Below, in pieces: positions 44,656 through 51,866 of a stretch of 64,000 nucleotides of DNA. The position numbers were made by a program, and so were the translations under genes. Origin of the DNA: Clostridia bacterium (GTDB lineage Bacteria; Bacillota; Clostridia; Oscillospirales; CAG-272). Numbering within the stretch: the first letter of the stretch is position 1; each line of letters begins with the position of its first letter. The stretch spans positions 4,533 to 68,532 of the forward strand of contig JAFUKI010000057.1 in assembly GCA_017467815.1 (NCBI GenBank), given 5' to 3'. The notes beneath the pieces were generated by a model, which was not told the origin of the DNA, searched no databases, and saw only the letters and a program-made list of their open reading frames with translations.

Positions 44656-44733
<78 letters not shown>

Positions 44734-44763
44734 ATTAGTGCGACCAAAAAAGATATCGCACCG

Positions 44764-44797
44764 AAAACCCGAGATTTTCTCGGGTTTTCTTCGTTTT
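44764..44797 (+). terminator. Rho-independent terminator after the tRNA pair
   Basis: AAAACCCGAGA-ttt-TCTCGGGTTTT, followed by CTTCGTTTT. Confidence 0.75.
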
Positions 44798-44921
44798 GTC
44801 AGGCATTATTTTTTGTGCCTTAACAATACATTTTTTGTAAACTCGCTTATAACTTTTTCGTAAAGTTACTTTATCTTTGGGATTATCTGAACTTTTCATA
44901 GTCATTCCTTATGTACTCTCG

Positions 44922-46055
44922 TCAAAGTAGTTCTTTCTTTTTAGCGTCAAATTCTTCCTGTGTAATTGCTCCCATATCAAGAAGATTCTTAAATTTCAAT
45001 ATTTCATCTGCAACAGATGTTGAAGATGATTGTGCTGTAATTTGCGACCGTTTAGATATTTCTTTTTTATTTTCTTTCACAGCATTCATGCATTGTTGGA
45101 TTTCCGAAAATGCTTTTTGTTTGTCTGTATTATTTTCGAAAATAAACACAATATCTTCAGCGGGGTTTCCTCCAAAATTACTATTTCTGAAACGAATATA
45201 CCCAACATCATTTTCTCCATCGCCCGCCTTTTGATAATCAACGCTATCATATTCTTGATAATCAATTTTGTACTTGCCTTTTACAACCTTAAAGATTGCC
45301 TTTTCGGGTGCTATAGCGTCGGCTGCAACATTGATTGCTGCTGATGTTGCTAAATTGATACCCGCTTTCACAATTCCACCAGTTAAGACACTGCGTGCTA
45401 ATGATTTAGCAGTGCTATTAGATATGAGACTTTCTTTAGGCTGGCTTTTTTTCAAGGCTTTCCCATATCCTTTTGAACTTTCTTCAATATCGAAATTGTC
45501 AGTCGTTGTCAAAACACAGTATGTTTCGTATATTTTTAGCTTTTGTCCTCTGTGACTATCTAACATACGAATAAGTCCTTTTTCCAGTTTACTATCGAAA
45601 TAACCATTGATCGCTTCGACAACGATAGGGGGAAATCCATTTTTTATAGCGATTTTCAGTATTTTTTCTCTGTTCTTTTCTACTCCGTTATTATCCTCGT
45701 ACTCGGTTTCTTTCCAAGCAGATGTATTTATTTTTCCGAAACATTGTTTGCAGATGTTTACGTTACCTAATTTTTGCAAGTGTTGTACAGGCTGCCCACA
45801 ACAATCGCAACGAAGCATACCATTCATCTGATTCGTGAAAAACTCGTTGATGGCGGCAATAACAGGTTGTGGGAAATTGTGCTTGTGAACAGTTTCTAAC
45901 GCATTACAACGCTGTTTTTCTGCTTCTTCATATCTCTCATACTGATGCTTCCACAAGAGACCATTTGCTTTCATAAAACAAACCTTACATACATTTACCG
46001 CTCCAAACTTTTCGGGAAGTAATGAGTTTTTTCCACACACATCACATTTTGCCAT
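44922..46055 (-). CDS. Hypothetical protein: two zinc-ribbon modules, a PH-like middle region and a C-terminal SHOCT domain
   Basis: 377 aa. AAGGAG Shine-Dalgarno. A duplicated module CxxCG...VNxCKxCFxK...WK... + NFPQPVIAAINEFF / NGFPPIVVEAINGYF. The C-terminal ADEILKFKNLLDMGAITQEEFDAKKKELL matches the SHOCT pattern. AT-rich codon usage. Confidence 0.75.
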   Translation of the reverse strand: MAKCDVCGKNSLLPEKFGAVNVCKVCFMKANGLLWKHQYERYEEAEKQRCNALETVHKHNFPQPVIAAINEFFTNQMNGMLRCDCCGQPVQHLQKLGNVNICKQCFGKINTSAWKETEYEDNNGVEKNREKILKIAIKNGFPPIVVEAINGYFDSKLEKGLIRMLDSHRGQKLKIYETYCVLTTTDNFDIEESSKGYGKALKKSQPKESLISNSTAKSLARSVLTGGIVKAGINLATSAAINVAADAIAPEKAIFKVVKGKYKIDYQEYDSVDYQKAGDGENDVGYIRFRNSNFGGNPAEDIVFIFENNTDKQKAFSEIQQCMNAVKENKKEISKRSQITAQSSSTSVADEILKFKNLLDMGAITQEEFDAKKKELL

Positions 46056-46188
46056 ATCGAAATACTCCTTAAATGATTATTTTCATAATACTCTTTGTAA
46101 ATTTCGCGAATCACAAAGTCAAACGAATGGTTATGTGTTACCATGCTCTTACTGGAGGAGGACTTAATTCAGATATCTGACTCGCTAT

Positions 46189-46345
46189 CAAAAAAGTGCG
46201 CTCCCGAAGGAACGCACCGAAAAAGTGAGTCCCCTCATTGTTGCGACACAAGCTCTGCCTATCTATGGGTATGAGCAAAGAGAGAAAACACCTTTTGCCA
46301 AGGTATTTTCCCATTGATAGGTCAAAAATATTAACTTGTGTCGCA
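46189..46345 (-). ncRNA. Candidate ~155-nt structured RNA (promoter-to-terminator unit)
   Basis: Starts ~7 nt after the 46351-46378 promoter. The 5' GCGACACAAG (46335-46344) pairs perfectly with CTTGTGTCGC (46243-46252). Nested helices are CCTATCAATGGG/CCCATAGATAGG and ACCTT/AAGGT. It ends in the terminator GTGCGTTCC-UUCG-GGAGCGCAC + U6 (46189-46217). Confidence 0.4.
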
Positions 46346-46350
46346 TATAC

Positions 46351-46378
46351 ATTATACCACATAATGAATATTTTTCAA
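46351..46378 (-). promoter_or_regulatory. Near-consensus sigma-A promoter TTGAAA-16-TGgTATAAT (minus strand)
   Basis: Plus-strand TTTCAA at 46373-46378 and ATTATACCA at 46351-46359. Confidence 0.6.
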
Positions 46379-46404
46379 GTAGTTTGGCGTATCTGGTCGA
46401 ATTT

Positions 46405-47445
46405 CTAAAGTTAACACCGCACAAAACACCCAACCATGCGAATTTCCAGTTTGATAAAGTTGAAAAATGCCTATATTTCTCCTACATCTCACAGACTAGT
46501 TGAAATTATCCGTCTCTCCTATTTGACCGAAAATACCACCCTGTTTTTCCATCGTTCCGCATACTAGTAGAAATTTAAGCGACATCGTTATGAAATTTTC
46601 TGTTTCTTTTTTGTTGCCATCAGAATTTCCAGATCTGCCATGATCTTTTTTCTGAAAAGCCTGTTTTTGACCCGATTTTAAGCCGTTTCAGAAAAAATTA
46701 TGCCTTTATACTGAATTTTAACTTGCCAGTATAAAAACGGCAAGGGGTCTTTTTTATCACTTTGCAGAACGGTCTTAAGTTAACGAAAAAAGTTGGGTAT
46801 ACGGCAAGAAGTATTTAATATTTTTTTGTGGGTTTTAGTCCGAAAAATTTTAGGTGCGCCATTTTTTCGCGGTTTTTACGGCTGAAAACGTGCTTTTTTC
46901 AGAAAATATATGTAGCATCTCAAACAAATATCCCATCTGATTTTGCGGGAAATCGAATCGATACCGTGATTTTTTCGCAAAAAACGCAGATAATCGTCCG
47001 AAACTCTCTTAAGTTAACGCACATCATCTCAAGCCGTTTCTAACACTATTTCCATGTTAATCGGAAACCGCCCATTTATCTTACACATTACGTTGACTAG
47101 TTGTAATTCTACACATTAATGTGAAATAACCGCCGTTTACACACTCGCTGAAAAATCGGCTTATTTTTTCCACATTATGCCGACTAGTGAAATATCTGCA
47201 CTCATACAGTTTACAAGTATCTATCTGCCGAGATTTTTCGTATCGTGTCTTTTTGATCGGATAGCCGCTTAAGTCAACACAAATTTGACAGGATGATTTT
47301 TGGAAACCATCCGCGAAAAAAATAACTTACTACATCAAGCCGACTAGTTGAGAATCCCAAAGGCGTGTTCTACCGTTCATTTTGGCGTTGGCATGATATT
47401 TATGCAAAATTTTTGCTACGTCCGCCCGACTAGTTGAAAATTACG
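46405..47445 (+). repeat. Diverged tandem array, unit ~86-87 bp, with conserved cores GACTAGTTGAAA / CTTAAGTTAAC
   Basis: The core anchor 'AGT' falls at 46409, 46458, 46498, 46566, 46778, 46837, 47012, 47099, 47186, 47272, 47346 and 47432. The last six are spaced 87, 87, 86, 74 and 86 bp apart. Each core is preceded by a T-run and a (C)TACAT..GCC block. Neighbouring units share ordered blocks (CCGTTT, ACAC, AATCGG, CACATTA; GGAAACC..CTTAC). There is no ORF in any frame. Confidence 0.7.
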
Positions 47446-47459
47446 CCTATATACCACAA

Positions 47460-47503
47460 GCGCGGGTTTGCTTCAATGGCAAACCCGCGCCTGTGTCTTT
47501 TTT
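47460..47503 (+). terminator. Strong hairpin terminator (usable on both strands) closing the repeat array
   Basis: A 12-bp perfect stem, GCGCGGGTTTGC (47460-47471) / GCAAACCCGCGC (47479-47490), with a 7-nt loop, followed by CTGTGTCTTTTTT. On the minus strand it lies just after the stop of ORF 47502..47711. Confidence 0.7.
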
Positions 47504-47711
47504 ACGACGGTACGCGGTAGACGAATCCCGCAAATGATTTCGTACGCAGATTCCGCTTGTCACTTCGATTCGGGCGAATCGGTCCAAGGTATGTGGCGAT
47601 ATCGTGCATCAGCAGTTCGCCGTCCGCGTTATCATCACGGTAAAACTGCTTGCAAAGCTCAATCGCCATTTTCAGATTTACCTTGTACTCATAGGTATTT
47701 TCTTCTTTCAT
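47502..47711 (-). CDS. Hypothetical 69-aa protein
   Basis: This is the only ORF longer than 60 codons in the 46.1-48.6 kb stretch that ends right at a terminator hairpin. Sequence: MKEENTYEYKVNLKMAIELCKQFYRDDNADGELLMHDIATYLGPIRPNRSDKRNLRTKSFAGFVYRVPS. The Shine-Dalgarno is weak (GGGG) and I recognise no family. Confidence 0.3.
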   Translation of the reverse strand: MKEENTYEYKVNLKMAIELCKQFYRDDNADGELLMHDIATYLGPIRPNRSDKRNLRTKSFAGFVYRVPS

Positions 47712-47788
47712 TTGACTAACCCCATTTTACAGATTAGCACCGCAGATAAAACAAAAAGAGAAACAAAACCCGAATATCGCGGGTAATT

Positions 47789-47943
47789 GTCTCTCCAGTC
47801 TCGCTTTTCTCTCTAAATCTCTCTGATCTGTTATGTCTGTGTCAGTCTCTCAAAATATATATCTGTAAAATGGAATTAAATCTGTCTCAAATAATGGGGG
47901 AGTCTCTCTATTCTCGAAAATCTCTCTTGTCTAGTCTGTCTCT
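47789..47943. repeat. CT-rich region with at least 8 copies of (G/A)TCTC(T/G)C
   Basis: GTCTCTC at 47789, 47845, 47902 and 47937. Variants at 47798, 47817, 47884 and 47920. The longer form TGTCTCTCAAAA occurs at 47843-47856 and 47935-47950. Confidence 0.6.
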
Positions 47944-48261
47944 CAAAAATCAGTTTATCTGCTGTGCTTGATATTATTATATGCGATTTGAGCTGAAAAT
48001 GCAAGTAACATTTTCTGAATTTTGGTTAACGGAATTGTGAACCCGCGGCATGGCAAAAGCCGCAAATCTTGCGATTGGCGGCTTAAGTTAATGACATTAC
48101 CGCAACGCTTCTGCGCTTTTTGCCACTATTTTTCATTATTTTCAAAGATAACTGTAAACGCCTCGTGTCTTTTCGAGAACTGTAGAAATGTTCTCTGTAG
48201 TCCTCTTTTTATTTCGGGAAATGCAGCGAAAGCAAAAATACGGACAATTGATCCTTTGCTA

Positions 48262-51203: not shown

Positions 51204-51866
51204 TCAGTTCTGGACGACCATCTCAGGCAAATTCATTTCCGCAAGGAATTTACCGTAGATCTCATCTTCTGCATTCTGCCGTGCCTTAACAGCGTCGTCA
51301 TAATTACTGTAAGTACCCAAATACAGAAGTTTGCCCTGAAATCTCAAGCGAACATACCACTTGTTTTGCTTCTTATGCCAATATACGCCGCGTGTGCCGC
51401 TGGTGTTGGCAGCAGTCGGTTTCATGTCCTGTATCTTGGATAGCTGTGTACCGCCGACAAAACCGGCTGACTGGGTCATGGTCTTCACATTGCTGTTCCG
51501 CAGGCAGTTTATGCACATTCTTTCCTTCTCATCATTGAGTGAACTGCTTATACGGTATACTATCTCTCCGCACTCACATCTGCATTCCCACACCGGGAAC
51601 AGCATACTGCCGCGCTTAAGCTTTTCCTCTGTCCGTCTCAGCACTGTAAGTTTACCGAAAACTTTACCTGTTAAATCGGGGGATCTAACACAGCCGCAGC
51701 TTATTACGTGACCGTTCTTCAGATTGCCGGTAGTGACGCTGTGTGTATTTCCGCAATCACAGAGACAATTCCAACGCCGGTGTCCGCTTCCGTCAGATGG
51801 CAATAAATCCTTTACAACAAGTTTCCCAAACCGCTGTCCGGTTAAATCTTCATACTTCTTTGTCAC
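51204..51866 (-). CDS. AP2-domain DNA-binding protein with two N-terminal Cys4 modules
   Basis: 220 aa. Two repeats of LTG(Q/K)xFGKLxV...WxCxC(D/E)CG...C(G/x)C. The C-terminal GVYWHKKQNKWYVRLRFQGKLLYLGTYSNYDDAVKAR is an AP2/integrase-DNA-binding-type fold signature. Confidence 0.75.
   Translation of the reverse strand: MTKKYEDLTGQRFGKLVVKDLLPSDGSGHRRWNCLCDCGNTHSVTTGNLKNGHVISCGCVRSPDLTGKVFGKLTVLRRTEEKLKRGSMLFPVWECRCECGEIVYRISSSLNDEKERMCINCLRNSNVKTMTQSAGFVGGTQLSKIQDMKPTAANTSGTRGVYWHKKQNKWYVRLRFQGKLLYLGTYSNYDDAVKARQNAEDEIYGKFLAEMNLPEMVVQN

Follow-up and report, generated by a model that had tools for sequence, protein, structure and literature searches.

According to PMC2266710, insertion sequences (ISs) of the IS231 subgroup have ends of the form CAT-------AA--TAA---, 10-12-bp duplications, sizes of up to 5.4 kb and passenger genes. 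Mobile insertion cassettes of the MIC231 type share the IS231 ends and are mobilised in trans (PMC2266710, PMC6199540). The locus analyzed here lies in a 64-kb stretch of DNA from a Clostridia bacterium (contig JAFUKI010000057.1; this whole stretch is hereafter called the window), where short repeated cores form an array between positions 46405 and 47503. This array is very probably the internal non-coding module of a defective, cargo-carrying IS of the IS4 family. The ends and target duplications of the window family fit the IS231 subgroup.

The closest named relative found was IS1675 from Lactococcus, a member of the IS4 family with a DDE transposase of about 440 aa that is 38% identical to P0005, the reference transposase for the identity figures given below. 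IS1675 has nearly the same terminal repeat (CAATGTCATTAAGTTAAGG) and likewise a 10-bp target duplication. Multiple transposase-binding sites, of which only the outermost are cleaved, are found in Mu (L1-L3, R1-R3 and an internal enhancer) and in Tn7 (TnsB sites). In both systems, binding of the transposase to these sites is established, and their distance from the ends is no more than about 150-1000 bp.

The repeated cores and the insertion sequence around them

The 69-aa open reading frame (ORF) beside the array had two homologues, and the contigs carrying them revealed the fused ends of an IS4-family DDE transposase. Full-length relatives were about 442 aa long, and the relative from L007 (L-numbers designate loci of related elements) scored 155.7 bits against NF033592 (cut-off 115) and matched PF01609. 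The IS4 signature Y-(2)-R-(3)-E-(6)-K was visible in relatives as YHKRWRIETAFRHLK, and the catalytic core was deleted from the window copy. Homology of the window to five elements located in other genomic contexts, including L008, L009, L010 and L012, started exactly at CAATGTCATTAACTTAAG (48082-48099, minus strand). The core copy at 48082, considered as an isolated copy in the preliminary description of this DNA, therefore does not belong to the array but forms the left terminal inverted repeat (IRL) of the IS. The CTTAAGTTAAC core corresponds to the inner part of this repeat.

The preliminary description, made from the letters of the window, reported two related core types in the same orientation, and both were recovered, as six GACTAGTTGA-type copies on the plus strand and five CTTAAGTTAAC copies. 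Searching the whole window on both strands for CCGACTAGTTGAAA with up to 3 mismatches gave six plus-strand matches within 46492-47439; outside the array, one inverted match (46373-46386) and two others in the remaining 63 kb were obtained. By repeat finding, the GACTAGTTGA-type cores belonged to a 31-nt family of six members (46475, 46543, 47076, 47163, 47323 and 47409), each made of a T-run, CTACAT, GCC and then GACTAGTTGAAA. The CTTAAGTTAAC core, at no more than 1 mismatch, was found at 46405, 46774, 47008, 47268 and 48082 and nowhere else in the window. Repeated cores were thus locally very enriched in the array region, and the anchor spacings first reported (87, 87, 86, 74 and 86 bp) were correct. 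The array was also ORF-free in the sense that it held no ORF longer than 71 aa, and the one array ORF tested (46828-47043) had no Pfam match.

The organization of the array differed from that first proposed, an old tandem duplication of a single 87-bp unit with homologous spacers. Tandem Repeats Finder, as a check for a tandem array or satellite, reported nothing in the region, even at a minimum score of 30. Identity at a lag of 87 in 46990-47460 was 32% (z = 2.75). Pairwise alignments of the inter-core segments were no better than those of shuffled sequences (all z <= 1.7), so that duplication of a whole 87-bp unit is unsupported. The pattern is better described as one of conserved sites parted by unrelated spacers. 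Repeat spacings and comparison with relatives gave as actual higher-order unit an A-A-B module of about 234-260 bp, in which A stands for the 31-nt blocks (TCAACTAGTC core on the minus strand) and B for the CTTAAGTTAAC cores. Spacings fell into classes of about 66, 76, 87 and 112 bp, a poor fit to integral helical turns. The array sits in an island of low G+C (0.37-0.41, while most of the window is at about 0.50), with the genes for tRNA-Leu and tRNA-Met immediately upstream.

Related elements and the A and B sites

Intact relatives shared a common layout, with the left inverted repeat (IR), the transposase gene (tnp), a hairpin, the repeat module, an outward promoter, a variable cargo and the right IR following each other. 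In L009 (GCA_045577925.1), the inverted repeats and the 10-bp duplication (GCTATGCGGG) bounding a 5.9-kb unit were both perfect, and this unit contained the transposase gene, the hairpin, the array and a cargo gene for a 1053-aa sigma-70-like protein. The same layout was found in whole units of L054 and L014, each flanked by a perfect 10-bp target duplication (CCGGCAAAAG and ACTGTTGAAT, respectively). IRL and right IR were both present in L009, L054, L050 and L014. The 1.1-kb array of the window was colinear, at 80-82% identity, with those of L035 (Oscillospiraceae) and L071 (Flemingiibacterium), both from other metagenome-assembled genomes, and some of the array units were missing from L008 and L009.

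Related cores were found in IS4-family elements of many gut Clostridia. When species-representative genomes were scanned for pairs of TCAACTAGTC cores separated by 52-82 nt, 56 loci were returned, roughly 30-35 of which would be expected by chance (estimate). At 13 of these loci, all from Clostridia, an IS4 transposase 40-100% identical to P0005 was encoded beside the cores. In the four other lineages examined, read in transposase orientation, 173-190 nt separated the transposase stop codon from the first A block, and the second block followed after about another 76 nt.

Alignment of 35 blocks from nine arrays defined A as a rigid composite motif of ~30 bp, T-N-TCAACTAGTC-N6-A(T/C)G(T)-N3-AAAAAT. 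The TCAACTAGTC core was nearly invariant (0.89-1.0 per position) and spanned lineages with transposases 40-60% identical to P0005. Features outside the search pattern were kept at fixed distances as well, namely A at +16 (0.89 of the 35 blocks), G at +18 (0.94) and an A-tract spanning +24 to +27 (0.80-0.89). The B site was a tip-less copy of the IR-internal motif of each lineage, i.e., TTAACTTAAG in the window and L035, ATTAAGTTAAG in Lachnospiraceae, AGCCGTTAAG in L037 and CGAGTGTTCGGTT in L051. B came after the second A block in L037, L051 and Lachnospiraceae; in the window, a pair of A blocks precedes each of the B cores at 47268 and 47008. The ancestral order is A-A-B, then further A blocks, whose orientation is direct in elements of the Oscillospiraceae type and inverted in those of Lachnospiraceae.

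Cores and spacers differed in their conservation. In a three-way alignment of the window, L035 and L071, invariant columns accounted for 87% of positions in the cores and about 70% elsewhere. Between L035 and L009, the array was 82.6% identical, compared to 80.9% at four-fold degenerate sites of the transposase genes. Judged by core invariance and by these identities, spacers drift at a roughly neutral rate and cores are held by constraint.

The hairpin that closes the array had been described as a terminator ending an array transcript. Its presence at 47460-47490 and its T-run were verified, but it does not close any such transcript, since it corresponds to the hairpin found after the transposase stop codon in the relatives examined. 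Hairpins with different stem sequences stood at the same position after the stop codon in L010, L037, L051, L054 and L050, and a post-tnp hairpin was present in every other lineage examined; it is probably a bidirectional terminator.

Cargos varied among elements and comprised a SHOCT protein in the window, an ArsR-family regulator in L035, a sigma-70-like protein in L009, a GT28/EryCIII-like glycosyltransferase in L054 and GNAT acetyltransferases in L050 and L068, with an FMN reductase also in L050. A strong outward promoter stood directly after the module and ahead of each cargo examined (window, L054, L050 and L035). In the Lachnospiraceae elements L054, L050, L072, L053, L068 and L014, unrelated cargos all started immediately behind a conserved ...TTTGAATTT, which in transposase orientation placed their start about 25-35 nt beyond the promoter -10. 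Where right ends were seen (L054, L050, L068 and L014), the cargo stopped before the same terminator and a ~93-nt right-end segment. These fixed cargo junctions hint at site-specific capture or at a single ancestral platform.

Some observations concerned the surroundings of the related elements and insertions into them. In two genomes (L009, 133-703, and L024, 2944-3503), a Y1 transposase gene of the IS200/IS605 type preceded the IS at a distance of about 100 nt, and the L009 duplication GCTATGCGGG lay inside a hairpin, CCCGCTATGCGGG. Such sites suggest that the element prefers palindromic GC-rich targets, a preference reportedly known for IS231A. An IS630-family (DDE_3) element was inserted in the CTAG of A cores in L014 (5585-6870) and in L015-L023. 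It was located between the second A core and the inverted A core in L014, where the B region was lost; in the nine contigs L015-L023 it was found in the first A core, in opposite orientation, about 190 nt after the transposase stop. As the IS630 element sits in their CTAG, A cores are insertion hot spots for a TA/CTAG-targeting IS. A single genomic context was obtained for P0041, and the contig breaks were caused by an IS630-family insertion and not by an IS end. Two near-identical tandem units of ~90 bp and a third diverged copy, each with an A block, were found in L064 (5820-6040; Oscillospiraceae, CAKTOW010000003.1), with no IS4 transposase detectable within the 8-kb locus; the A block thus also occurs outside its usual context.

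On the minus strand of the window, the IRL (from 48099) is followed by the leader, tnp, hairpin, module (47443 to 46405), inverted A core, promoter and cargo (Table 1). The window lineage contains about four tandem A-A-B modules, with B cores at 47268, 47008, 46774 and 46405.

Table 1. Features of the window element, with positions in the window
Feature	Position	Strand	Remarks
Left terminal inverted repeat (IRL)	48082..48099	-	Reads TAATGTCATTAACTTAAG; family consensus CAATGTCATTAACTTAAGCCGC; 1 mismatch
IS 5' leader, GAGAC repeats and interleaved inverted repeats	47712..48081	-	80-88% identity to L008, L009 and L012; 68% to L010
Internally deleted transposase gene, 69-aa ORF	47502..47711	-	First 5 and last 64 codons of ~442-aa IS4-family DDE transposase
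Hairpin after transposase stop codon	47460..47490	.	In window lineage, T-run good on + strand only
A block 1, TCAACTAGTC...ACG...AAAAAT on - strand	47409..47439	-	Repeat finding and block alignment
A block 2	47323..47353	-	Repeat finding and block alignment
B core TTGACTTAAG, variant copy of IR-internal motif	47268..47278	-	
A block 3, 1-nt deletion in core	47163..47193	-	
A block 4	47076..47106	-	
B core GTTAACTTAAG; its TTAACTTAAG matches IR-internal motif 10/10	47008..47018	-	
B core GTTAACTTAAG; expected A blocks of module no longer recognisable	46774..46784	-	
A block 5, degenerate (TCTACTAGTA)	46543..46573	-	
A block 6	46475..46505	-	
Last B core (GTTAACTTTAG)	46405..46415	-	
Inverted A-like core, overlaps -35 box of cargo promoter	46373..46386	+	Lachnospiraceae relatives have inverted A blocks at same place
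Outward sigma-70-type promoter TTGAAA-16-(TG)G-TATAAT, 11/12 matches	46351..46378	-	Homology to L071 ends inside promoter
Probable cargo: ~290-nt leader and 377-aa SHOCT/zinc-ribbon gene (44922-46055), low G+C	44922..46350	-	Cargo status by analogy with relatives
CCGCAAC, 7-bp direct repeat, tentative target duplication	48100..48106	+	Other copy 44725-44731, 3' end of tRNA-Met

The CCGCAAC pair was the only hint at the limits of the element (44732-48099), and was 7 bp long, compared to the 10 bp usual in the family. One copy adjoins the 3' end of tRNA-Met and the other the left repeat of the IS; were the pair a target duplication, the terminal CA of the element would now supply part of the CCA end of the tRNA. 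The predicted empty site, with tRNA-Met directly before ...GCTTCTGCGCTTTTTGCC, was used as a query on metagenome contigs, and its nine matches were all due to chance, in high-GC DNA.

Among the 3-4 contigs of this species covering the array, it was identical or differed by 1 SNP, which makes these contigs uninformative. With its transposase deleted and no detectable right end, the window array is now a relic in a dead element, most likely a fixed one.

The cargo side and the leader of the window element displayed further features. The cargo promoter reads TTGAAA-16-TGGTATAAT (region 46056-46378, minus strand), and the leader behind it contains two terminator-like hairpins (46312..46282 and 46218..46195). 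A 74-aa ORF in the cargo leader had no Pfam match and looks non-coding, and no Rfam match was obtained for the leader either; ahead of the SHOCT gene, it may act as an attenuator or be riboswitch-like. The IS leader (47712-48060) is rich in GAGAC/CTCTC direct repeats with interleaved inverted repeats, and may be a regulatory region of the IS. As for the neighbours named in the preliminary description, its "recombinase" is the 377-aa SHOCT/zinc-ribbon protein, with which the idea of an integrase in a tRNA island was discarded. Its "AP2 protein" (51204-51866, minus strand) had a weak AP2 match (E = 5.9e-4, 20.5 bits, compared to a cut-off of 33.3), and its gene lies outside the element, beyond a rhamnosidase gene.

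Possible roles of the module

With confidence slightly above even, the array is read as part of an IS in which the cores are cis-acting protein-binding sites at the joint between transposase and cargo. This favours, among the options first listed, a protein-binding array of a mobile element, given that the array lies inside an IS4-family element and that cores are conserved across relatives. The binding-site mechanism itself is plausible, its chances falling a little short of even. B sites are predicted to bind the transposase and would not be cleaved, since they lack the CAATGTCAT tip; for the A sites, both the transposase and a conserved host factor are candidate ligands. Together, A and B sites would keep freshly synthesised transposase close to the gene encoding it. 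They could help it to reach the right end, pushed 1-5 kb off by the cargo, as an accessory or enhancer-like complex, or could alternatively titrate it.

Several points weigh against these binding sites and against the limits assumed for the element. To our knowledge, internal accessory sites so far from the end have not been described for IS4-family (Tn5/Tn10-type) transposases. Matches of B to the IR are 10-13 nt each, and singly none exceeds the longest match in shuffled arrays; the argument rests on their recurrence at the same place in four lineages, a pattern noticed after the fact. A showed no convincing likeness to the IR in either orientation, and the transposase need not bind A, since A remains unchanged when the IR changes. 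No A blocks were found with the related transposases of the P0077 lineage and IS1675, so that the module is not required for transposition. In the window itself, several A blocks are degraded. As to the right boundary, no right inverted repeat was detectable in 44700-46400 or elsewhere in the window, and when a degenerate one was searched for in the window, the best alignment scored below the shuffle mean.

An extension of the binding-site reading, judged unlikely, is that the A-A-B module is the cis device making a compact IS1675-like IS a cargo shuttle. Internal sites for transposase and host factor would then serve as a transposition enhancer or as a docking/exchange site, through which promoter-driven cargo genes (resistance-like enzymes, regulators) would be transported and exchanged among gut Clostridia by a cut-and-paste IS4-family element.

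It is rather improbable that A and B are alternative or pseudo-ends, i.e., cargo-exchange sites by which transposase and cargo modules move or swap separately, as IS231 and MIC231 cassettes do. On this reading, the module would mark the point at which an IS became fused to a mobile insertion cassette. In line with such ends, B is an IR-internal motif, is oriented like a left end and lies immediately before the cargo. Close backbones with unrelated cargos (GT28/EryCIII-like, GNAT, FMN reductase, ArsR, sigma-70-like) and Lachnospiraceae cargo junctions at the same backbone positions also speak for them, as do L068, which consists of the module, cargo and right IR without transposase and has its breakpoint exactly at the 3' edge of an A core, and the mobilisation of MIC231 cassettes in trans by IS231 (PMC6199540). 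However, the CAATGTCAT tip at which cleavage takes place is missing from the sites. No target duplication accompanies the L068 breakpoint, and all three duplications found flank whole units. The differences in unit number of L008 and L009 are explicable by unequal homologous recombination between cores.

An operator array, in which A blocks bind a conserved Clostridial regulator controlling or insulating the outward cargo promoter, is held at the same low level of confidence. It would account for a module always located between the transposase terminator and a strong outward promoter, with the last A core abutting or overlapping the promoter, and for the constancy of A across transposase lineages, as expected of a host factor. 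Up to 11 sites over 1.1 kb seem excessive for one promoter, however, A is not known to match any regulator motif, and the tracking of the IR by B is left unexplained.

Tandem modules encoding small RNAs, or a single long non-coding RNA, were among the options of the preliminary description. Such modules, tandem promoter modules and a long RNA with its end at 47460-47490 are now very improbable. The terminator T-run does stand on the plus strand about 20 nt past the last unit, and in some relatives plus-strand blocks display TG-N-TACATT (extended -10-like) upstream of the invariant GACTAGTTGA, but this -10-like motif is absent from most window copies. Cargo promoters apart, promoter-like sites were not enriched over shuffles in the arrays of the window, L054 and L035. 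Blocks occur in both orientations in relatives, and no terminators are found between units. Folding z-scores of +0.97 and +0.37 displayed no excess structure on either strand, and only two tRNAs passed in an Rfam search of the window, everything else scoring far below gathering scores. The hairpin at 46722-46755, first taken for an internal terminator, was not kept in the two colinear relatives, which showed no compensatory changes.

Least probable of all is a purely neutral relic made of decayed duplications of IS sequence that never were functional. Spacers evolving at about the neutral rate, a dead window element with several degraded cores and same-species arrays identical or 1 SNP apart, with no sign of ongoing dynamics, would fit such a relic, but the TCAACTAGTC core and its fixed-distance ATG/A-tract are kept across lineages with transposases 40-60% identical to P0005, cores are more conserved than their surroundings and the position of the module relative to the stop codon is kept. 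The functionless satellite considered earlier is probably right for the present state, the window element being dead, and leaves core conservation across the family unexplained.

Known site classes were also compared with the cores and rejected. An integron/attC cluster was ruled out, as no integrase domain was found in the ten neighbouring ORFs tested and, by inspection, cores had no inverse-core partner to form paired inverse-core/core motifs. Readings of the core as attC, dif/Xer, DnaA-box, iteron, sigma-28, ECF, sigma-54 or sporulation-sigma sites were a poor fit by eye in motif or spacing. A sigma-70 reading of A in both orientations (TCAACT-17-AAAAAT; TTGnnn-16/17-GAAAAT) gave poor hexamers and no enrichment. 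The window element was not classified as a MIC231-type cassette either; with only one repeat and a transposase remnant, it works like a non-autonomous derivative without corresponding to the definition.

Comparison with known systems

The window array is to be annotated as an IS remnant with cargo beside tRNA-Met, and not as an RNA gene or a satellite. More broadly, it points to a clade of IS4-family elements with cargo that is widespread in Oscillospiraceae and Lachnospiraceae and for which no description was found. A promoter platform and a conserved internal motif module are common to this clade, whose cargo includes a glycosyltransferase, acetyltransferases, an FMN reductase, ArsR and a sigma-factor-like protein. 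Within the available literature, a string search for the core returned only unrelated primers and motifs, and no description of either the downstream cargo platform or the conserved A-A-B module was found in the accessible parts of the sources cited, so that both appear to be new. If transposase or a host factor proves to bind the module, we would know of no earlier accessory-site architecture in this transposase family, and searches of gut metagenomes for such cargo shuttles could make good use of the module as a sequence marker.

Compared to the elements of the window family, IS1675 is compact (1.6 kb), with its right end about 130 nt past the stop codon, and lacks A blocks, an internal B site and cargo. 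IS231 and MIC231 resemble the window family in their CA(T)...AA..TAA ends, 10-12-bp duplications, modular organization and passenger genes. In IS231, however, the extra DNA is located between the left repeat and the transposase gene, whereas in the window family it lies downstream of the transposase gene. Hosts differ as well, with the Bacillus cereus group for IS231/MIC231 and gut Clostridia for the window family, and the available parts of PMC2266710 and PMC6199540 mention no internal array of conserved 30-bp blocks.

The window family shares with Mu and Tn7 the presence of several putative or known binding sites of the same family, spaced by tens of bp, for which a role in assembly or regulation of the transposition complex is proposed. 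Mu and Tn7 depend on other transposase families. In the window family, as much as 5 kb may lie between the right end and the putative binding sites, which are internal. With integron attC arrays, the window family has in common a promoter-equipped platform, exchangeable cargo and repeated sites in one orientation, but it has neither an integrase nor the inverse-core/core symmetry. While attC sites are located between cassettes, those of the window family stand upstream of a single cargo region.

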